A stretch of 64,000 nt of DNA from Minisyncoccota bacterium (GCA_041663005.1 JBAZRK010000002.1:740-64739), one strand, 5' to 3'. Counted from the first letter of the stretch, positions 4,793 through 48,459 are shown. Numbers and translations: made by a program. Notes: generated from the letters alone by a model not told the origin.

Positions 4793-7210
4793 CTAGTAGA
4801 CCAATGCCTGGATTTTTTCTTTAGTTTTCGGACCCACAATTCCATCTGAAACTAAACCATTTCCTATTTGCCATTTTTCTACTTCTGCTTCAGTTTTAGG
4901 GCCAAATTTACCATCAACTGACAAAGTCGCATGGACAGTATCGTTTAGATAATTTTGCAAATCTTCAACTGCCGGACCTAGGCTACCTCGCCTTAAGGTT
5001 CTCGATCCTAAATTATAAGTTTTCTGGTTTTGGGATACTATTGTGTCAGCTGTCACGCTGGCGTTGTCGGCGGCAGCTTTCGCGACGTCAGGTTGGTCGG
5101 AATTATCAAACCCACCTGCTGGTTTAGCCCCGACTGTCACAGTAGCTTGTGCCGAGCAAGCCTCTACTCCCCCAATCTTACCATAGACTCGGCAAGTGGT
5201 TGTCTTGGTCAAATTAGGAATTGTGTAAGGCGTTGTAGGTTCAGCTGAAATTTGAGTTTCTCCCGCACCACAATCGCCGTAAGTTTGCCCTAGGTCTGCG
5301 CCGACTACTTTCCAGGTTTCAGTGACTGAGCCACCATAAGGAATGGCCGTGGTGTTGAAAGTGAGGAAAGCGCTACAACTACCGGGCGGTGGCGTAGGAG
5401 TGTAGTTGAACAAAGGATTAGTGTTTGCTCCACCCGCTAAGCTTAAGTCTAGTTTGTATACTAGGAATCTTTGTTCCCGCTGCATGCCCAATATCAAGTA
5501 GCCCCCTTGGGTTACCGTAATACTATTAAGTGAATCATTGGTCGAATATGGTAAAGCAAGCTCATCTATTTTCTGCCCATCTTTCCATAATATTATACTG
5601 GAACTATATGTCGTAATAATTGCTCCTCCGGAACTCTTATAAGAGCCATTCGGTACTTGGCCTACAAATAAGACATAGTCCCCCCAGACCGCAAAATACC
5701 TGGCTTGTTTACGAAATGTCGGTCCAGCAACTTCTTTCTTTGTTCCCTCAGGTATATTAATAGTTTTATCCAGAACAATATCGTTTGTTGTCGCTCGAAA
5801 TATATTCACCTTAGCTGGACCCTTGCCACCAAATGAATCTGTCGTAAATTCCCAGGAAGCCAAACGCGGTGGCCAAACAGAATTATCAAATGTATATACT
5901 GCGCTACCTTTTACTGGTAAATTTTTTAGAAGAGTCCTAGAACCACCTGCAGAAACCTTGTATGCGCTCCAAGTTTCTCCTTTGGCACTAATCCAGAAAT
6001 CGCCGAAACCAAAATTGTTTAAATTCTCTCCATTTACATTTCCTTCAACCTTGTCCCAGCCACCTACGGTTCCAAGCTTGTTCCAGTCAGGCAAGCCTAA
6101 TAACCTCCCTTCTCGAGTTATCAGTCGATCTTTAAGTACCACATTTGTAAAGTCAGAGCCGTTTCCGAGTGTGGATATTGAAGATACGCTCAATTCACCA
6201 GCATCGTCTATATCGTAATATACCGAGTAGTTGATACCTCCAGGATAATATTCTGCGCAATCTCCCGGTTCTCCACTGGGGCCAGGATTTGAGCACGCCA
6301 TACCAGCAGCTTCATCTACTGATCTTATGGGATGAACAAAAGATCCCAAATCACTAGCCCAATTAATCAAAATCTCCGATGCAATTAATCCCCCCATGTG
6401 ACCCATGCTCCATGCTCCACTACTAGAATCATCACAACCATCTCTTGAAGAAAGAATAGCTGAACCATCTTCTTTCATTACCCACAGATTGGGCGAGAGA
6501 ATACAATTACCACCTATCACCATCTTGTCTTTCATACCTGCAACACTGGTAATATAAAAAGAGGAGTGATCTTTTGGATTTGCCTTTAGTCCTTCTTTGA
6601 TAAATTTAATTTTTCCGTTAGTGGAAGAAGGAGTTGCGGAAGTTATTGGCGGAGGAACATAAGCAGCGGGCTTTGTTTTAACTTTAAAATTAACGTAGCC
6701 ATCTTCGGTGCAAGCTGTGCCTTTATATGTGTAGTTGGCCTTTATTCTGACTTTCGTTTCGCCCACAGAGCTCGGTGTTCCTGCTGCATATACACGCAAC
6801 CATGGTCCTTTTGAAGAAACTCCTGGCGCAGCATAGCTAGTAATTTCTCTACCGTAAGTCAATTCTTTAGTCTTAAATGCGCTTATGCCGGCGGGAAGCG
6901 GATCAACTGCGGAAACCGTAATGGTTCCAAAAACTGAAACTGGCAAAAGTCCGCCCGGATCCGTAAGGTTAGAATCCGAATCCCAGCTACTGCCATAACT
7001 TTGGCCAGCGTATAGAGAAAGGCTATGGGTATTGGTATAAGCCAATGTGCCTGGTGCTTCGTCCGAAAAATAGCCCAGCACGCTAGAACAATCCGAAGAA
7101 CCAATGTCGCGAACTGCTCTGCCTTTAGCTGAGACATTACTAAAACTAGCCGACAAGAGGAGCAGTGCTAAGAGGCTCCATCCTGCGACCTTAAAGAATA
7201 TTTTTTTCAT
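4793..7210 (-). CDS. Large secreted surface protein with C-terminal peptidoglycan-binding domain
   Basis: Signal peptide. C-terminal ...LQNYLNDTVHATLSVDGKFGPKTEAEVEKWQIGNGLVSDGIVGPKTKEKI. 805 aa. Confidence 0.7.
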   Translation of the reverse strand: MKKIFFKVAGWSLLALLLLSASFSNVSAKGRAVRDIGSSDCSSVLGYFSDEAPGTLAYTNTHSLSLYAGQSYGSSWDSDSNLTDPGGLLPVSVFGTITVSAVDPLPAGISAFKTKELTYGREITSYAAPGVSSKGPWLRVYAAGTPSSVGETKVRIKANYTYKGTACTEDGYVNFKVKTKPAAYVPPPITSATPSSTNGKIKFIKEGLKANPKDHSSFYITSVAGMKDKMVIGGNCILSPNLWVMKEDGSAILSSRDGCDDSSSGAWSMGHMGGLIASEILINWASDLGSFVHPIRSVDEAAGMACSNPGPSGEPGDCAEYYPGGINYSVYYDIDDAGELSVSSISTLGNGSDFTNVVLKDRLITREGRLLGLPDWNKLGTVGGWDKVEGNVNGENLNNFGFGDFWISAKGETWSAYKVSAGGSRTLLKNLPVKGSAVYTFDNSVWPPRLASWEFTTDSFGGKGPAKVNIFRATTNDIVLDKTINIPEGTKKEVAGPTFRKQARYFAVWGDYVLFVGQVPNGSYKSSGGAIITTYSSSIILWKDGQKIDELALPYSTNDSLNSITVTQGGYLILGMQREQRFLVYKLDLSLAGGANTNPLFNYTPTPPPGSCSAFLTFNTTAIPYGGSVTETWKVVGADLGQTYGDCGAGETQISAEPTTPYTIPNLTKTTTCRVYGKIGGVEACSAQATVTVGAKPAGGFDNSDQPDVAKAAADNASVTADTIVSQNQKTYNLGSRTLRRGSLGPAVEDLQNYLNDTVHATLSVDGKFGPKTEAEVEKWQIGNGLVSDGIVGPKTKEKIQALVY

Positions 7211-41330: not shown

Positions 41331-44300
41331 CTATTCAATAATCACTTCTTTTTCCACTTTTGCGCGGAAAATTAAATTGTTGATTTTTATTTCTTCGCCG
41401 TCATTATGAGCAAATTTTATTTCCGAGGCCAAAACGGTTTTCTTCAAATCCGTTTCGAATTTACCCACGAGCTCCTGCCCGGCAGTGTTTGTATCGATTA
41501 TGAGCTTCACTGTGTCGCTCGGAGTGAGGCCTGTTTTCTTGCGTAGCTCCTGAAGCGCACGCACTAACTCGCGGTAATTTCCTTCTTCTTTAAGCTCCGC
41601 AGTCAGCTCTGTATCGAGCTCTAGGTCGGGTGCCATATTTTTATCCTCTTCAACTTTTTTGATATTGAGTTCCTCGGCAATTATGTGCTGGAATTTCTGC
41701 GGCAGCGTAATTTTTATTTTTATTTTTGTAAGCGGCTGCTTTACTGGCAGGTTCTCAAGCTGTCTCGCTTTCAGTCCGGCTGAAACGATGTTCCTTACAG
41801 TCTTCATATCTAGGATTATTTTCCTGACTTTACCTTTTTCAAAAACCACCTTGATTTGCCCGATTATATTTTTCGTCGGCCAGCTTTCTAGGTGTACGCT
41901 TTCCTTGTCGCCCGCTATGCGAAGCCTCTGCCAGATATCCTCCGCGGCGAAAGGTGCAAAAGGCGCAAGCAACTTGGAAAGGGTCTTCAGTACGTAGTAG
42001 AGCGTTCGTTTCGCATCATTATCTCCGTCTTTTATTCTTTCGCGGGAACGTCGCAAATACCACGTCGACAGGTCGCCAATGAAATCCCTAATCGCGCGAA
42101 CAGGTTCAAGGAGTTTGTAACTATCCATACTTTTAGTCATCAAATCTATGAGCTCATCCATTCGGCCTAAAATCCAGATATCCAAAACGTTTTGAGTTTG
42201 GGGGCGTACATTAGTCTCGAGGGCTTCGTCGCGATACAATTCATAGAAGAAAAGTACATTGTAAAGCAGACCGAATACCTGGCCCTGGAGAAGGGCAACA
42301 GTTTTCTCGTCGAAATTTTTAGACTCGCCCGGCTGGTTCACAGAATACATCCAAAGCCTAAGAGTATCTACACCATATTTATCCATAGCTTCCCAAGGGT
42401 CTACAATGTTCCCGAGAGATTTAGACATTTTTTTGCCCCTGGAATCCATTAAGTGTCCTAAGCAAATCACGTTTTTAAATGCTTTACCTTTACCCATTAG
42501 TACACCAATAGCGTGCAGAGTGTAAAACCATCCCCGGGTTTGATCTATAGCTTCGGCGATGAAGTCCGCAGGGTAACCCTTGCCTTCCACCCACTTTTGA
42601 TTTTCAAAAGGGTAGTGATCCTGGGCAAAAGGCATCGCTCCAGAGTCAAACCAAACATCCATAACTTCTTTCGTGCGGACAAGTTTCCCGCCACAATCGC
42701 AGACAAGATTAATTTCATCAATGTATGGACGGTGTAAATCAAGTTCATAAGTTTCGTTGTGAGGAAGTGGTACAAAAGCAAGCTCAGAAATTTGAGCATT
42801 ATCCACACTTGGAAGATGATTAAGCCCCACCGTCAATTCGCTGTATGACAAATTCTTAACAATAAAATTTAACGAGCGGATTACCCCGTCATGGCTACTA
42901 ATAAAAATATTTTTATTCGAATATTTCTGTTCCAGCTCATAAATAAATTGCCCCACACGCTTTACTAGTTCGACAAAGCTCTCCCCTCCAGGTAAAGCTT
43001 CTCTGGGGTTGTAAAAGAATCCCTGGCGATAATAATCCAAAAATTCAGCCGGGTCCTTACCATCGAAAACGGTACTAGTTTCCCACTCCTGGATGCGTTT
43101 GTCGTAGATAACTTGCTCCAAAGGAAAGTTTAACTCTTCACAAAGAATTTTCGTAGTTTCTCGCGCCCTATTGTAAGGAGAAGAGATAACAATATCAATT
43201 TTTTCCTTGAAATTTTTAGCACTTCCTAGCACCTGAGATTGGCCCACGTCAGTCAAATGTGCGATCTCTTGCAGCTTCTTTGTATGTATGTTTTCTCGAA
43301 GATTATTCCCAGCTTGTCCGTGGCGCATTACGAAATATTTGTTGCCGGATTTCTTGGTTCGAGCCTCAAGGTCTGCGACACTGCCTAAGACTTCAATTTT
43401 TTTACATTTCTCGCAGTGCCAGACAGGAAGCGGCGTACCCCAGTAGCGCTCGCGTGAGATAGCCCAATCTTTAATTTCCCGCAGCCACTCGCCGAAACGC
43501 CCTTCGCGGATGTGCGACGGTTCCCAATTTATGTCCTTGTTCTCAGTAATCAGCGCGGATTTTATTTTCGGATCCGACATTTTTATATACCAAGAATCTC
43601 GCGCATAATAAATAAGCGCGGTGTGACAACGCCAGCAATGCGGATACGAGTGCTCATATTTTTCTTTCTTATATAGAAGCCCGCGGTGCGCTAAATCCTT
43701 GATTATATCCACGGCAACTTCTTCGTCTTTAACAAATCTGCCCTCAAAGATTCCGGTGCCTGGTAAAAATTTCCCATCAAGCCCCACCAAGTGGTGCTTC
43801 GGCAAGCCTACTTCAACCCCGAGGAGAAAGTCGTCTTGCCCGTACATCACAGCGGTGTGCACCACGCCCGTACCATCGTCGGTGGTGACGAAGTTCGCCT
43901 TGTGTACCTTGTAAGCTTTTTCCAATTTTGGTTTTTCACTCTCGGGAATTGTGTTTAAGAAATATGGGAACAGGGGTTCGTACTCTAGGCCCACTAAACC
44001 CTCCCCTTTTATCTCCTCTACAATCTCGTATGGGTCGGCAATGATGGAGAGTTGTGCTTTCGCTAGGAAATAAAATTCATTTGTAGCGTCTTTAGCAACT
44101 TTAATTTTTACATAATCGATATCCTGCCCCACTGCCAGCGCCACGTTCCCTGGCAAGGTCCATGGTGTCGTGGTCCAAGCAAGGATGTATGTGTTGTCAG
44201 CGCCTTTAATCTTAAATTTAGCAGTGACCGATAAATCTTTCACATCCTCGTAACCCTGAGCAAGCTCATGTGAAGACAGCACCGTACCGCACCTTGGACA

Positions 44301-44849
44301 CCAAGGCACAACTTTATAATCTTTATAAAGAAGTTTCTCCGCGTTTACTTTCTGGACGATATTCCAAACTGATTCTATGAAATTATTGTGATAGGTAACG
44401 TACGGATTTTCTTGATCCACCCAGAAACCGATACGGCGAGTAAACTTGTTCCAAATATCCAAATATTCCCAGACACTTTCTTTGCATTCTTGGTTGAATT
44501 TAGCGATACCGTATTCTTCAATAGCTTTCTTGGAATTAAGTCCGAGCTTTTTCTCCACTTGAAGCTCCACGGGTAGGCCGTGCGTATCCCATCCTCCTTT
44601 CCGGCGGACATGATACCCCCGCATTGTTTTATAGCGAGGTATCGCGTCCTTGAACGCACGTGCTTCCAGGTGGTGAATGCCTGGCTTGCCGTTCGCCGTC
44701 GGCGGACCTTCGTAAAAAACAAATTCTTTTCGCCCCTTCGACTGATTCAGGCTTTTCGCGAAAATTTTATTCTCTTTCCAGAATTCCAAAATACGCTCTT
44801 CACGCAGTGCCGTCTCACTTTTTTTATTTAAATCTTTTTCTTCTTGCAT
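41331..44849 (-). CDS. ileS: Isoleucine--tRNA ligase carrying an inserted histidine-phosphatase (PGAM-like) domain
   Basis: HIGH (PGIHH) and KMSKS motifs and a CP1 editing region. About 200 aa inserted between ...VLGSVADLEARTKK and DLHRPYIDEI, containing FVMRHGQAGNN and ISSHDGVIRSL (the RHG...H catalytic signature). 1172 aa. Confidence 0.93.
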   Translation of the reverse strand: MQEEKDLNKKSETALREERILEFWKENKIFAKSLNQSKGRKEFVFYEGPPTANGKPGIHHLEARAFKDAIPRYKTMRGYHVRRKGGWDTHGLPVELQVEKKLGLNSKKAIEEYGIAKFNQECKESVWEYLDIWNKFTRRIGFWVDQENPYVTYHNNFIESVWNIVQKVNAEKLLYKDYKVVPWCPRCGTVLSSHELAQGYEDVKDLSVTAKFKIKGADNTYILAWTTTPWTLPGNVALAVGQDIDYVKIKVAKDATNEFYFLAKAQLSIIADPYEIVEEIKGEGLVGLEYEPLFPYFLNTIPESEKPKLEKAYKVHKANFVTTDDGTGVVHTAVMYGQDDFLLGVEVGLPKHHLVGLDGKFLPGTGIFEGRFVKDEEVAVDIIKDLAHRGLLYKKEKYEHSYPHCWRCHTALIYYARDSWYIKMSDPKIKSALITENKDINWEPSHIREGRFGEWLREIKDWAISRERYWGTPLPVWHCEKCKKIEVLGSVADLEARTKKSGNKYFVMRHGQAGNNLRENIHTKKLQEIAHLTDVGQSQVLGSAKNFKEKIDIVISSPYNRARETTKILCEELNFPLEQVIYDKRIQEWETSTVFDGKDPAEFLDYYRQGFFYNPREALPGGESFVELVKRVGQFIYELEQKYSNKNIFISSHDGVIRSLNFIVKNLSYSELTVGLNHLPSVDNAQISELAFVPLPHNETYELDLHRPYIDEINLVCDCGGKLVRTKEVMDVWFDSGAMPFAQDHYPFENQKWVEGKGYPADFIAEAIDQTRGWFYTLHAIGVLMGKGKAFKNVICLGHLMDSRGKKMSKSLGNIVDPWEAMDKYGVDTLRLWMYSVNQPGESKNFDEKTVALLQGQVFGLLYNVLFFYELYRDEALETNVRPQTQNVLDIWILGRMDELIDLMTKSMDSYKLLEPVRAIRDFIGDLSTWYLRRSRERIKDGDNDAKRTLYYVLKTLSKLLAPFAPFAAEDIWQRLRIAGDKESVHLESWPTKNIIGQIKVVFEKGKVRKIILDMKTVRNIVSAGLKARQLENLPVKQPLTKIKIKITLPQKFQHIIAEELNIKKVEEDKNMAPDLELDTELTAELKEEGNYRELVRALQELRKKTGLTPSDTVKLIIDTNTAGQELVGKFETDLKKTVLASEIKFAHNDGEEIKINNLIFRAKVEKEVIIE

Positions 44850-45066
44850 AATATTTTATAAAACAAAAAACCCGTCCCCGTGCAACTAATAATAATTGCA
44901 CAAGGACGAGTTTTCTCGTGGTACCACCTTGTTTGCTTCTCATAACACCGGGTTCTACTAACCTTGCGGTTTTCTTCCCCAGGCTCCAGGGTGATCCTTG
45001 CCCGCCTCTGGCGGGGCCCCTTCAATGCCTATACATAAAGTATAACACGTTTATATATTTTTTCAA
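44850..45066 (-). promoter_or_regulatory. T-box riboswitch-like leader for ileS (Ile AUC specifier), with promoter and intrinsic terminator
   Basis: Promoter -35 TTGAAA (45061..66), 16-nt spacer, -10 TATACT (45039..44). T-box sequence AAGGUGGUACCACG (44916..44929), against the AGGGUGGUACCGCG consensus. Candidate specifier GGAUCACC (AUC at 44992..94). Terminator CGUCCUUGUGCAA...UUGCACGGGGACG-U6 at 44864..44908. Confidence 0.6.
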
Positions 45067-45095: not shown

Positions 45096-46808
45096 CTACA
45101 TCTTCGCCGGGGCGCGGATACCGAGCAGGTTAAGCCCAGATTTCATTACGAAAGTGAAGGCGAAGGTAAGGGCCACTTTGTACGAAGAAGACTTGTCCTC
45201 TGGGTTTACGATAACATTGTTGCCATAGAAACTATTGAAGGCACGAGCAAGCTCTATGAGGTAGCTCGTGATGTGGTGCGGCTCGTATGCACCCGCGGAG
45301 CGGAGCACAATTTCCGGGAAACGGTAAATTAATTTCTCCACTTCCCAGGCGCTCTCCGGTGCCACGTGAGGGTCTGGCAATACGTTTTCCTTTTTAGCTT
45401 TCTCAAGGACTGAGTTTGCGCGGGCGTAGGAGTAACAGAGATAGGGCCCAGAGTCGCCGTCGAAGGAAATGGACTTTTCAAAATCATAAACGATGTCGCC
45501 CCCGATGGATTGCTTTAAGATTGAATATTTTAAGGCGGACACAGCCACGTCAGTAGCAATTTTTTCTTTCTCTTTGTCGGTAAAGTCCCGAGCCTGCATT
45601 TTCTGCCAGACCAATTCCTTTACATCACGGAGAAGTGACTCACCGGTAATGACGTTGCCGGTACGTGAGCCCATTTTCCCTGAAGCGAAGCGCATCATTC
45701 CGTGGGTAATATGCCGCATTTTATTTTCATACTCAGGATGAATGAGCGAGAGAGCTTTCGTCACCACACGCATATAGTCAGCTTGCTCGTTGGCAGTAAT
45801 GGTGATAGAGAGGTCCATATTGGGCTCAGTTTTAAATTTCTCGAGTGCCAACCCGAGCTCCTTGGTTTCATAAGTAGGTAAGCCCTGCGATGTAATGAAA
45901 ACTCTGGTATGGAGTTTCGGGTCATAATCCTCAGCCCTGAAAACTACGGCATTGTCGCTCTCAGTAAATACTTTGCCTTTATTTTCAAGCACTATCTCTT
46001 CCCCAATTCCGGCCATCACGCTTTCTAGGAAATAATAATCGAATTCTGTACCTAAAATTTCATACAAATCTTCAAAGGCCTTCATCGTAGCATCGAAACC
46101 CCAGTCATACAGAGTGTTGAGTTTTTCGTCGCTCCGTTTGTAAATCTTTTTATTGATTTCATCAATTTCTTTTTTAGCTTCACTGTCCTTCTCGTAAGCC
46201 GTAGCACCCAGCACGTAAGCACTGCCGATATTAGCTGCTTCGGCTTTATGAGAACCAAGCTTTTCGGCTAGAGTAGGGTCTTTTGTAAGTCCGTAAATTG
46301 CTTTGGCTACGTGAAGCCCGATATCTCCCTGATAGTTGGCACGAGCTACTTGAGCTCCGGAATGCTCGAGCACACGAGCTATAGATTCTCCAATGGCATT
46401 GGTCATTAAATGCCCGATATGGAAAGGTTTGAAAGGATTGGGATCGGTATATTCCACCATTATTTTCTTCCCGGTAAGTGTCGCATTTTTCCCTGTGTCT
46501 TCACCGTCGTTTAAAATTTCTTCAACGTTCTCTGAGAAAAATTCTCGGGAGAGATAGAAATTTATAAATCCCGGCCCTGCAAGCTCCATTCTTGCAATTT
46601 TTTGCGGCAGATTTTTCTCAATTTCTAATATTATTTTTTGCGCCAACTCTTGCGGCTTCATTTTTGCTTCTTTGCCGGCCACTAGCGCCACGTTCGTGAA
46701 ATAGTCGCCGTTTTTCAAATCTTCAGGGTGCTCCACCGCAAAATCGCATTCGGCAATGCCCAAATTTTTCAAAACATCTTTTATTATTCTCTCTATTTTT
46801 TCTTGCAT
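45096..46808 (-). CDS. argS: Arginine--tRNA ligase
   Basis: N-terminal Arg_tRNA_synt_N-like region, HIGH-like PFHIGHL, and a DALR-type C-terminus. Confidence 0.92.
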   Translation of the reverse strand: MQEKIERIIKDVLKNLGIAECDFAVEHPEDLKNGDYFTNVALVAGKEAKMKPQELAQKIILEIEKNLPQKIARMELAGPGFINFYLSREFFSENVEEILNDGEDTGKNATLTGKKIMVEYTDPNPFKPFHIGHLMTNAIGESIARVLEHSGAQVARANYQGDIGLHVAKAIYGLTKDPTLAEKLGSHKAEAANIGSAYVLGATAYEKDSEAKKEIDEINKKIYKRSDEKLNTLYDWGFDATMKAFEDLYEILGTEFDYYFLESVMAGIGEEIVLENKGKVFTESDNAVVFRAEDYDPKLHTRVFITSQGLPTYETKELGLALEKFKTEPNMDLSITITANEQADYMRVVTKALSLIHPEYENKMRHITHGMMRFASGKMGSRTGNVITGESLLRDVKELVWQKMQARDFTDKEKEKIATDVAVSALKYSILKQSIGGDIVYDFEKSISFDGDSGPYLCYSYARANSVLEKAKKENVLPDPHVAPESAWEVEKLIYRFPEIVLRSAGAYEPHHITSYLIELARAFNSFYGNNVIVNPEDKSSSYKVALTFAFTFVMKSGLNLLGIRAPAKM

Positions 46809-47158: not shown

Positions 47159-47851
47159 TTAATTCTTTAAAATTTTTCTAACTTGCTTGTAAATCTCATC
47201 GTGTATCGCTTCACGACTTTTAAGTTTGCCGGCTTCCATACATTCTATCTTGGTCCAACCTTTTTGGGTCTTGGCAAGCCAGAGCGCGCTCTTACGGGAA
47301 TGCTCTAGGAATTTCACATCTTTCTCGTGAACGTCTTTTTTACCTTTTAGATATTTTCGGCCGGCGCTTTTGTTCCTTTCTTTAATTAATTTTAGCACTA
47401 CGGGAATGGGCACACTTAAGTAGAAAACTTTATCCGGCTGAGGAATTTTAAACACGTCATACTCCATCTCCGCTAACCATTTTAGAAAATTTTCACGCTT
47501 TTTAGTGTTAGCAATTTTGCCCCCTTGGTGAATCTGGTTGGCGCTCGCGTACCTGTTCGCCAAGACGATGCTCCCCGCTGCCAGCCACTTCTCGATTTTA
47601 TTTTTTGACTCGAAGCGATCTGCGGCATATAGAACTGAAGCAATTTTCGGGTGCACTTTTACGAAATTATAATACTGTTCGGACAAGCAGTGTCCGACAA
47701 AAGCGCCGAAAAAGTTGGAGTAATATTCGGGAAAATCCACAACCTTGACGGTGTGGCCGTCTTTCTTCAACTGCTTAATGAGAAGTGCAACTTGGGTTGC
47801 TTTACCGGAACCATCGGTACCGTCTATAACTATGAGCTTGCCTCGTGCCAT
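47159..47851 (-). CDS. tmk: Thymidylate kinase
   Basis: LIVIDGTDGSGKAT P-loop. Confidence 0.85.
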   Translation of the reverse strand: MARGKLIVIDGTDGSGKATQVALLIKQLKKDGHTVKVVDFPEYYSNFFGAFVGHCLSEQYYNFVKVHPKIASVLYAADRFESKNKIEKWLAAGSIVLANRYASANQIHQGGKIANTKKRENFLKWLAEMEYDVFKIPQPDKVFYLSVPIPVVLKLIKERNKSAGRKYLKGKKDVHEKDVKFLEHSRKSALWLAKTQKGWTKIECMEAGKLKSREAIHDEIYKQVRKILKN

Positions 47852-47895
47852 CTAGAAAATATAGCAGAAAAAGGCCCAAAAGAGAACCTGCCGAG

Positions 47896-48459
47896 TTATT
47901 GATAGAACTCTTTATAAAAATCCGGTTTCATCACTCGAAAGTATTCTTTCAGCTTGGATGGGAGTTTCGTAAGCGAGAAACCGAATTCTTGGGCTAGGGT
48001 CATAATATTAGTGCTCGCTTCTTCTGCTTCGGAAGAGTTCTCCACCATAACCTCAATTTCGCAAACATTGTAGCCGAAACTTGTTTCGTCTACGTCAATA
48101 TTGAATTGTCCTTTTTTATATTTCTTTCGTTTTGTCTCCCAGCTTGCCAAAATGTTCATTTCTCTCGACACTATTTCTGCTAAGTTGCTGTCTTTACCAA
48201 AACCTAATTTCTCTAAGATTCCCGTCTCGTCCTCTATTTCTTCCGCACTGGAAGTGCCACCCTCGAAATCAGGTCGTAAAATTTTTAATTCAAAATTTCC
48301 ATTCCTATTTCTTAAGCGAAAACCTTGCTTGAAAAGCCGGCGGTCCGGATAATCATATAAAAAATCGCTATAAAATTTCTCTCCCACGAATTCTGCTTCC
48401 ACCAAGAGCGCTTGAAGTTGTGTTTCCGTCGGCTGAAACTTTTTTTCCACTTCTATCAT
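47896..48459 (-). CDS. CYTH-domain protein (triphosphate tunnel metalloenzyme)
   Basis: N-terminal IEVEKKF, the EIERKF-like CYTH signature. Confidence 0.65.
   Translation of the reverse strand: MIEVEKKFQPTETQLQALLVEAEFVGEKFYSDFLYDYPDRRLFKQGFRLRNRNGNFELKILRPDFEGGTSSAEEIEDETGILEKLGFGKDSNLAEIVSREMNILASWETKRKKYKKGQFNIDVDETSFGYNVCEIEVMVENSSEAEEASTNIMTLAQEFGFSLTKLPSKLKEYFRVMKPDFYKEFYQ

Follow-up and report, generated by a model that had tools for sequence, protein, structure and literature searches.

A histidine phosphatase domain nested within the isoleucyl-tRNA synthetase of a Minisyncoccota bacterium

The subject of this analysis is a 64,000-nucleotide stretch of DNA from a Minisyncoccota bacterium (GCA_041663005.1 JBAZRK010000002.1:740-64739; the whole stretch is referred to as the window), and in it the gene ileS, whose isoleucyl-tRNA synthetase (IleRS) product carries a foreign domain. 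Taken together, sequence and structural modelling identify this insert as a complete, compact branch-1 histidine phosphatase. The association of synthetase and phosphatase is a recurrent and selected one; the strongest evidence for it is the presence of the phosphatase as a separate upstream gene in relatives, together with its multiple copies in IleRS and in valyl-tRNA synthetase (ValRS). The best explanation overall is a type-2 IleRS (IleRS2) with a catalytically competent nested phosphatase that would once have been an upstream gene and would act on a small phosphomonoester; we hold this combined reading to be evenly poised between right and wrong, and its parts are graded separately below. 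The features of the gene and its product are as follows, with (-) for the minus strand and CP for the connective peptide subdomains.

41331..44849 (-): ileS open reading frame (ORF), 1172 aa, type-2 IleRS with nested phosphatase (ORF, Pfam, NCBIfam, PDB alignment)
43365..44849 (-): IleRS before the insert, residues 1-495; first Rossmann half, CP1 editing domain, CP2 and start of CP3 (aligned to 8c8w 2-475)
44670..44681 (-): class I signature in the non-canonical GXHH form, G57-I-H-H60 (sequence)
43638..44255 (-): CP1 editing domain, residues ~199-404 (matches the isolated IleRS editing-domain structures 1wk8/1wny/1ue0)
43437..43475 (-): CP2-CP3 linker IKDWAISRERYWG, residues 459-471, ~30 residues ahead of the insert (sequence)
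43404..43415 (-): second zinc knuckle, first half, C479-E-K-C482 (each Cys conserved to at least 90% in 115 homologues)
42741..43364 (-): insert, residues 496-703; histidine phosphatase with two conserved junction peptides, TKKSGNKYF ... FxPLPHNxxYEL (gap against 8c8w and insert-less IleRS)
42831..43334 (-): Pfam His_Phos_1 (PF00300) match, residues 506-673 (E 4.3e-23)
42693..42701 (-): second zinc knuckle, second half, C717-D-C719 (at least 90% conserved)
41334..42740 (-): IleRS after the insert, residues 704-1172; remainder of CP3 and second Rossmann half (Pfam, 8c8w alignment)
42417-42431 (-): KMSKS, residues 807-811 (sequence)
41724-42182 (-): Anticodon_1 (Pfam)
41349-41621 (-): DUF5915 (Pfam)

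The nested domain and its host

PF00300 matches the insert with 82.4 bits against a gathering cut-off of 21.7, over profile positions 2-167 of 194. An earlier reading of the window, made from the sequence alone, had noted about 200 extra residues at 42750-43340 bearing two catalytic signatures; these residues lie within the insert as delimited here, the motifs that it quoted are where it placed them, and both RHG (509-511) and the distal histidine align to catalytic positions of His_Phos_1. The Pfam search that it proposed gave the match listed above, which falls inside the interval that it had named. The excised insert was modelled with AlphaFold2 (AF2) on 32 diverse homologues, with a predicted local distance difference test score (pLDDT) of 92.7 and a predicted template modelling score (pTM) of 0.90. 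In Foldseek it is related with probability 1.00 to many solved histidine phosphatases, at template modelling scores (TM) of 0.69-0.73. The nearest folds (TM ~0.72, root-mean-square deviation (rmsd) ~3 Å) are phosphomonoesterases of about 200 aa, the top matches being the mycobacterial hydrolase 6s2q, the glucosyl-3-phosphoglycerate phosphatase Rv2419c, PspA, the riboflavin-pathway HFP 9mmh and CobC. By sequence, the insert also aligns end to end with 9mmh, PspA 4ij5, CobC 3hjg/6e4b and PhoE 1h2e, and in the fold model it retains the cap region typical of small-molecule phosphatases.

None of the NCBIfam subfamily models for cofactor-dependent phosphoglycerate mutase (dPGM), CobC, PspA, RNase H/acid phosphatase or SixA comes near its cut-off on the insert. 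The best-scoring NCBIfam phosphatase model, NF005567 (RNase H/acid phosphatase), gives 53.4 against 326; TIGR03162 (alpha-ribazole phosphatase CobC) gives 50.1 against 162.9, NF045917 (phosphoserine phosphatase PspA) 39.8 against 350, and the dPGM models NF038349 (archaeal, a partial match), NF002339 and NF002901 give 51.3 against 225, 22.8 against 316 and 21.1 against 261 respectively. Since the superfamily match is accompanied by no score at any subfamily cut-off, the insert belongs to the superfamily and lies outside any characterised subfamily.

The sequence-only reading had called the insert PGAM-like, which holds at the level of the superfamily and fails for mutase-specific models and motifs. 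That a true dPGM has been fused to IleRS is very improbable. Superfamily membership would be consistent with it, dPGM structures do occur among the fold matches and the archaeal model gives its partial 51 bits, but the dPGM scores are far under their cut-offs, the domain has only about 170-200 aa, and mutases of 230-250 aa superpose on it only at an rmsd of 5.5-7.8 Å. Mutases carry HGNS(L/I)R at the distal histidine, E-R-x-Y after the catalytic glutamate and a C-terminal tail; here the distal histidine stands in SSHDGVIRSL (family consensus HxxPxxxL) and a tryptophan follows the catalytic glutamate. A true mutase was ruled out on the dPGM scores and the fold superposition.

The host gene is a single unbroken frame of 1172 codons, running from 44849 down to 41331, and in this the sequence-only reading was correct. 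TIGR00392, the ileS equivalog model of NCBIfam, scores 852.5 bits against a cut-off of 621.4, and placement as type 2 is supported by the NCBIfam MupA/MupB-like models. Pfam finds tRNA-synt_1 in two pieces, Anticodon_1, DUF5915 and His_Phos_1 on the product; the C-terminal organisation of type 2, with Anticodon_1 and DUF5915, is therefore present. The closest solved structures are those of Priestia megaterium IleRS2 (8c8w) and the T. thermophilus enzyme (1ile). The motifs of the host are all there: GXHH, KMSKS, the editing-domain motifs (WTTTPWTLPGN, at residues 225-235, is within CP1) and all four zinc-knuckle cysteine pairs. CP1 and KMSKS had been recognised from the sequence alone; the HIGH motif reported with them is in fact G57-I-H-H60, in which both histidines (H59, H60) reach at least 90% conservation over 115 aligned homologues. 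The G/AXHH variant is functional in IleRS2 and is linked to mupirocin hyper-resistance (Brkić et al. 2023, bioRxiv 10.1101/2023.01.31.526100). Judged by these motifs and domains, the host is a functional-looking type-2 IleRS. Its predicted aminoacylation of tRNA-Ile has indirect support in the strong conservation of the core, and no second ileS-like long ORF stands out in the ORF list of the window.

On the query, the 8c8w structure covers residues 5-495 and 702-1128, and it has only about 9 residues of its own between these two stretches; the insert is therefore put at about 197 aa. Six insert-less IleRS of Patescibacteria bridge the same gap, at reference residues ~499-701, and the motifs on either side are VLGSVADLE (487-495) and DLHRPYIDE (704-712). 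The two halves of the second zinc knuckle flank the insert, and on this alignment the insertion site is the tip of the second Zn-binding hairpin, in subdomain CP3. The extra residues are thus where the sequence-only reading had seen them, but the site is this hairpin tip and not the plain short linker that it had supposed. The hairpin is about 30 residues past the DWAISRERYWG linker. In the domain map of yeast IleRS, CP2 comprises residues 420-458 and CP3 residues 459-526, and the CP2-CP3 linker, ARDWNVSRNRYWG, forms part of the pocket in which reveromycin A mimics the tRNA CCA end (PMC7955072). Equivalence of the site to the leucine-specific domain of leucyl-tRNA synthetase (LeuRS) was considered and rejected, as that domain directly precedes KMSKS and is not in CP3 (PMC3643597).

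The junction peptides, TKKSGNKYF on the one side and FxPLPHNENYEL-DLHRPY on the other, are far more conserved than the body of the domain and are confidently modelled. This suggests a fixed mount rather than a flexible tether.

Conservation, distribution and origin

The residues that would carry out the chemistry are these:

43317..43325 (-): R509-H510-G511, phosphate-binding Arg and nucleophilic His (invariant in 120 homologues)
43167..43169 (-): R561, second phosphate-binding Arg, SxxxR motif (invariant)
43086..43088 (-): E588, candidate proton donor (in the column of the catalytic Glu of PspA)
42891..42893 (-): H653, distal catalytic His (invariant in 120 homologues)

The homologues come from NCBI, JGI, ENA and Logan assemblies and are the 120 protein clusters with the best scores (64-74% identity, 1143-1335 aa). 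Across them the insert has a mean identity to the protein of the window of 46% (range 27-60%) and a column entropy of 1.9 bits, as compared with 73% and 0.6 bits for the rest of the protein. The invariant or near-invariant residues of the insert are N503, Y505, R509, H510, G511, N516, L532, T533, G536, S557, R561, T565, E623, R631 and H653, and position 588 is Glu in 92%. R561, E588 and H653 fall in the catalytic columns of PspA and 9mmh on alignment; the distal histidine lies in SSHDG (651-655) and the catalytic glutamate in QEWETS. The same residues were then checked copy by copy in the embedded, tandem and standalone domains among the 150 best cluster representatives of the profile search described below, with only those copies counted in which the position is covered. 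Both R and H of RHG are kept in 161/161, the second Arg in 169/169 and the distal His in 165/166, and the proton donor is Glu or Asp in 167 of 168.

Catalytic residues that are kept despite fast divergence argue for an active enzyme, and the domain is, on its sequence, very probably an active phosphomonoesterase with H510 as nucleophile. The option that it is catalytically dead, which had been left standing in the earlier reading, is unlikely with every catalytic residue invariant. Alternatively, the domain could be non-catalytic, either a structural buttress of CP3 or a module for sensing or regulation that binds, but does not turn over, a phosphorylated metabolite. The fast evolution of the domain body would be consistent with this, and nested domains of class I synthetases, for example the leucine-specific domain of LeuRS (PMC3643597), often help to bind tRNA or to position loops. 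A purely structural role, however, would not require that the chemistry be retained; the residues in question, including the nucleophilic histidine and the Glu/Asp donor, are kept in each of up to four copies, and standalone members with the same residues exist, for which a buttress cannot account. We therefore consider a non-catalytic role distinctly unlikely.

The architecture is widespread, a point on which the comparison with related lineages suggested at the outset was informative. PF00300 is carried by 120/120 of the best homologues, and in a scan of the insert alignment against one genome per GTDB species, which returned at least 556 matches, the encoding species representatives are named Paceibacterota, Nomurabacteria, Zambryskibacteria, Campbellbacteria or Minisyncoccia. 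The phosphatase-bearing proteins are usually labelled in databases with the generic "class I tRNA ligase family protein". In 63 of 66 related loci with a complete ORF, the domain is inside an ileS of 1148-1392 aa. The exceptions are L019, with an in-frame stop, and L002 and L060, with a frameshift or deletion; in the latter two the frame changes and missing segments are upstream of the phosphatase domain. The interrupted ileS of these three loci could be sequencing errors, pseudogenes or split genes.

These three loci are also the one observation, with an "HN" dipeptide at the C-terminal junction that looks superficially like that of an intein, which might favour an artefact or selfish insertion, whether by mis-assembly, frameshift, intein or mobile element. 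A frameshifted assembly joining two genes, named in the sequence-only reading as what would overturn it, is ruled out because the architecture recurs in hundreds of independent assemblies: it is in frame in at least 556 species-level genomes and in all 120 top clusters, from independent projects. There is no break in GC content at the insert, and an identical protein is encoded on a 307-kb contig of a Candidatus Paceibacterota metagenome-assembled genome. An intein or mobile element was rejected as well, as His_Phos_1 fills the insert almost completely and leaves no space in which a Hint domain could lie, and HN is followed by Glu and not by Cys, Ser or Thr. The probability left to explanations of this kind is negligible.

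Some relatives of about 1330 aa and 66-69% identity (P0036, P0075, P0092, P0103) have, in addition, a C-terminal domain of about 200 aa from the HD superfamily, with weak Pfam matches to HD, HD_3 and YfbR-like, which places a second phosphohydrolase in the one chain; the locus of one such IleRS is L091 3035-7042. In P0103 the signature region is degenerate (residues ~48-62, VTANSKPVLHTML in place of PTANGKPGIHHLE), and on this sequence the protein may be a paralogue with impaired catalysis.

When 1.84 billion cluster representatives were searched exhaustively with the profile, 456 had E ≤1e-30; the best 150 of these were classified, the host class being assigned after the phosphatase domains had been masked. 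IleRS-like hosts account for 102 of the 150, ValRS-like hosts for 2, standalone proteins or fragments for 44 and others for 2. Several synthetases of 1380-1540 aa bear between two and four intact copies (P0127, P0158, P0168, P0186, P0192, P0201, P0271), at CP2-side, CP3 (single or tandem) and post-KMSKS sites. P0158 and P0201 have tandem copies within the CP3 hairpin; P0168, P0186 and P0192 have one copy in the hairpin and one between KMSKS and the anticodon-binding domain. The ValRS-like P0127 has four. P0271, which NF004349 scores at 849 bits (cut-off 704), is a true ValRS, with one copy at the homologous hairpin, right after WWGHQIP, and the other in an insertion of about 450 residues further upstream, which falls between positions equivalent to 362 and 378 of T. 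thermophilus ValRS. About 230 residues within this large insertion of P0271 (~636-868) are matched neither by the phosphatase profile nor by T. thermophilus ValRS.

The standalone members are proteins of about 190 aa from Patescibacteria which share all the hallmark motifs, and are annotated merely as "histidine phosphatase family protein" or "broad specificity phosphatase PhoE". Seven were inspected, picked solely for their long contigs and covering two subfamilies. In all seven (7/7) the phosphatase gene has argS on one side and a type-2 ileS without the insert on the other, all on the same strand. Four lie directly against ileS (gaps of 1, 7 or 24 nt, or an overlap of 7 nt); between the other three and ileS there are from one to three small genes (CYTH; an unknown gene of 330 aa; RHH-ParE-HD_3). 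The window has the same gene order as these loci, argS-(hp)-ileS-recO-DUF11/CLIPPER protein-class II aminoacyl-tRNA synthetase, where hp is the phosphatase gene:

45096..46808 (-): argS, conserved upstream neighbour of ileS (synteny)

No standalone copy of the phosphatase was found in the window. The insert profile matches the standalone argS-ileS phosphatases P0202, P0334 and P0195 with E values of 1e-42 to 1e-54; identity between the insert and P0202 is 34% (E 7e-25). Insert and standalone phosphatases have in common NKYFxxRHG, LTxxG, SxxxRTxxTA, GES, the distal H, the catalytic residues and the neighbourhood. They differ in that the standalone phosphatases are separate genes of about 190 aa beside an insert-less ileS of 818-982 aa, and lack the junction peptides (TKKSG..., ...PLPHNENYEL). 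The adjacency persists across ileS lineages whose mutual identity is only 38-41%; that of the adjacent phosphatases is 45-59%. The distance tree of the domain copies sets the Patescibacteria phosphatase family apart from generic phosphatases of Firmicutes. The signal of gene neighbourhood combined with that of gene fusion indicates a functional link between phosphatase and IleRS, and the embedded domain is likely to derive from the ileS-adjacent upstream gene.

Several side observations concern these neighbourhoods. The standalone HD_3 gene upstream of ileS in L083 was tried as a member of the family of the P0036-type C-terminal HD domain and was rejected (E 1.4, not significant). Between the standalone phosphatase and HD_3-ileS at this locus is a pair of an RHH antitoxin and a ParE-YafQ-type toxin (6652-7187). 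Reverse-transcriptase genes are found at a distance of a few kb from argS-hp-ileS in two contigs of Patescibacteria, L086 (9716-10567) and L087 (1890-2663), one of them beside a bAvd accessory gene; such a pair is typical of diversity-generating retroelements. The nearest relatives of the insert outside Patescibacteria are from Firmicutes, at about 30% identity, in a DUF378-tilS-hpt-phosphatase cluster (L092/L093 2977-5639; L094 2538-5247). TilS modifies tRNA-Ile2, but tilS-hprT is a standard pairing in Firmicutes and synteny is common to these loci, so that they count as a single weak observation.

Possible mechanism, substrate and regulation

In the history that we propose, the ancestral state would be a separate, Patescibacteria-specific gene of about 190 aa immediately ahead of ileS (argS-hp-ileS). 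On the Paceibacterota branch to which the window belongs, this gene would have moved in frame into the synthetase next to it, with loss of the separate copy, to give a polypeptide with three active sites, for aminoacylation, CP1 editing and phosphomonoester hydrolysis. In the last of these H510 would attack a terminal phosphate held by R509, R561 and N516, E588 would protonate the leaving group with the assistance of H653, and the phospho-histidine would then be hydrolysed. Fusion would secure 1:1 co-expression and co-localisation of the phosphatase with IleRS, and expression in the source genome would be under a predicted T-box leader that senses tRNA-Ile.

This leader is contained in the 246-nt gap upstream of ileS:

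44865..45066 (-): ileS leader, comprising promoter-like site, T-box and terminator (Rfam, sequence, promoter/terminator scan)
45066-45039 (-): promoter-like site TTGAAA-16-TGnTATACT (promoter scan)
45034-44899 (-): compact T-box with shortened Stem I (Rfam RF00230)
within 44989-44997 (-): candidate Ile specifier AUC-A (sequence)
44915-44930 (-): canonical T-box core AAGGUGGUACCACGAG (sequence)
44914-44867 (-): terminator hairpin of 20 pairs with U-run, ending 17 nt before the ATG (terminator scan)

RF00230 scores 38.3 bits over its full model span, which is under its gathering score of 93 (E 7.6e-6 over 8 kb). The sequence hallmarks of a T-box are nevertheless present: a core with UGGN, a specifier with a purine after it, and a competing terminator just ahead of an aminoacyl-tRNA synthetase gene. 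In 27/67 related Paceibacterota loci ileS is preceded by a strict T-box core, and the antiterminator helix shows compensatory changes. No T-box was found upstream of the standalone phosphatase-ileS operons in the standalone loci searched, and co-regulation by tRNA-Ile is therefore not general to the association. Our literature search found no report linking T-boxes with bacteria of the Candidate Phyla Radiation (CPR).

As to the substrate, a small phosphomonoester is favoured because of the nearest folds and the cap region, and we lean slightly towards a small molecule rather than tRNA. Most plausibly it is a nucleotide or sugar phosphate. Genes for nucleotide handling are found near argS-ileS: thymidylate kinase (tmk) and CYTH in the window (47159-48459), and in relatives NUDIX, dUTPase/DCD, an AA_kinase-family (UMP-kinase-like) gene, HD_3 and CYTH (L083 889-1380 and 7193-7819; L087 5570-6160, where CYTH is between phosphatase and ileS; L091 375-1287). 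These neighbours point weakly to a substrate of the nucleotide type, or may reflect mere dense housekeeping synteny.

The main alternative is that the phosphatase may be coupled to aminoacylation itself, as a third site for the acceptor end of the tRNA or for nucleotides of the synthetic site. It might, for example, strip a 2'/3'-terminal phosphate, or the products of a 2',3'-cyclic phosphate or a 3'-pyrophosphate, from tRNA-Ile or tRNA-Val before charging, or it might clear a phosphorylated nucleotide by-product; IleRS would give the tRNA recognition and the nested domain the repair chemistry. On balance we would expect such coupling not to be the case. In its favour, the association is specific and recurrent, with 102/150 representatives hosted by IleRS and two by ValRS, and with every standalone gene inspected near ileS. 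The multiple intact copies are at CP2-side, CP3 and post-KMSKS sites which are all peripheral to the catalytic cavity, the CP3 of the host begins with a linker that in yeast IleRS lines the CCA-end pocket (PMC7955072), and the conserved, confidently modelled junctions imply a rigid mount. The extra HD-superfamily phosphohydrolase domain of some relatives would fit, and the predicted T-box here would tie expression to uncharged tRNA-Ile. Furthermore, phosphorylated CCA ends that block charging are real, being made by toxSAS toxins (bioRxiv 10.1101/2021.04.30.441581, PMC11559606). Against coupling, the closest folds are small-molecule phosphatases and the cap region is retained; the embedded domains are slightly acidic, and coupling offers no explanation of why IleRS and ValRS alone would need such an activity. 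To our knowledge, no branch-1 histidine phosphatase acts on RNA 3' ends. The standalone domains are basic on average, but per locus their surface charge ranges from -6 to +26 and follows the bias of the whole proteome, so that charge gives no clear clue to RNA binding.

Coincidence accounts less well than coupling for the recurrence, the forms with several copies, the parallel in ValRS and the rigid junctions. In its most specific form, IleRS (and ValRS in some lineages) would be a self-repairing synthetase, which dephosphorylates CCA ends that are 2'/3'-phosphorylated, derived from a cyclic phosphate or pyrophosphorylated before charging them. It could in this way counter nuclease damage or toxins of the toxSAS type, and the standalone upstream gene would be the two-protein version of the same system. 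Both this proposal and the purpose assigned to it are, in our estimation, unlikely to be correct.

Several points weigh against a nested phosphatase of metabolic function that was acquired from the upstream gene, the explanation which we prefer overall. The junction peptides outdo the domain body in conservation, hinting at a fixed orientation on the synthetase. The presence of two to four copies at three sites, and the entry into ValRS, are hard to square with a purely independent metabolic phosphatase. The structure prediction proposed in the sequence-only reading gave a confident fold for the insert but no usable packing: the full-length AF2 model has a pTM of 0.49 and a pLDDT below 50 in the Rossmann core, such that the direction of the phosphatase pocket cannot be read from it. 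With the CobC, PspA, archaeal dPGM and RNase H/acid phosphatase models all far under their cut-offs, the insert has no subfamily assignment. Finally, the seven neighbour cases share ancestry and a general synteny and are not seven independent events, and the distance tree of the domain copies is star-like, so that it does not resolve the direction and number of transfers.

Novelty and comparison with known systems

The literature searched, which includes an analysis of 96,219 IleRS sequences, yielded no description of an IleRS or ValRS with a phosphatase domain; the sequence-only reading had called the architecture non-standard. Both parts are familiar, and it is their nested combination, its breadth and its proposed history from operon to insertion that are new. 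If the phosphatase acts on tRNA or on nucleotides made by the synthetase, it would be a new form of quality control or repair built into tRNA charging, and this in the CPR, whose translation-related biology is reduced and poorly understood. Should it instead be a metabolic enzyme with no such relation, it would be a clean natural case in which an operon neighbour has been inserted into the active-site domain of an essential enzyme without destroying its host, of interest for protein evolution and for the engineering of domain insertions.

As a phosphatase, the insert resembles PspA 4ij5, the Rv2419c enzyme GpgP 4qih, HFP 9mmh, CobC 6e4b/3hjg and PhoE 1h2e in fold (TM ~0.72, 193-202 aligned columns), in size and in its catalytic constellation. 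It differs from them in sequence (about 22% identity) and in being nested, whereas they are free-standing and have known small substrates. The actinobacterial RNase H/acid phosphatase (NF005567, PRK07238, Rv2228c type) is likewise a CobC-like phosphatase joined to a nucleic-acid enzyme, but it is an end-to-end fusion and the partner is RNase H, not a synthetase.

As regards the synthetase, there is a curated precedent for an IleRS with a foreign catalytic domain in NF040702 (IleRS, N-acetyltransferase domain-containing); the extra domain in that family is a GNAT, and the protein of the window scores 315 against its cut-off of 1999. Few enzymes have been studied as thoroughly as the aminoacyl-tRNA synthetases. 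Their nested domains, such as CP1, CP2/CP3 and the leucine-specific domain, are textbook grafts onto the Rossmann fold, and a phosphomonoesterase grafted into the catalytic domain of a synthetase was not previously part of that picture. The CP1 editing domain is, like the insert, a module in a loop of the Rossmann fold, and it is a second hydrolytic site visited by the tRNA 3' end; unlike the insert, it is found in all IleRS, ValRS and LeuRS, and the bonds that it hydrolyses are aminoacyl esters. The leucine-specific domain of LeuRS is also a functional module in a Rossmann-fold loop, but it is located directly before KMSKS and is non-enzymatic (PMC3643597).

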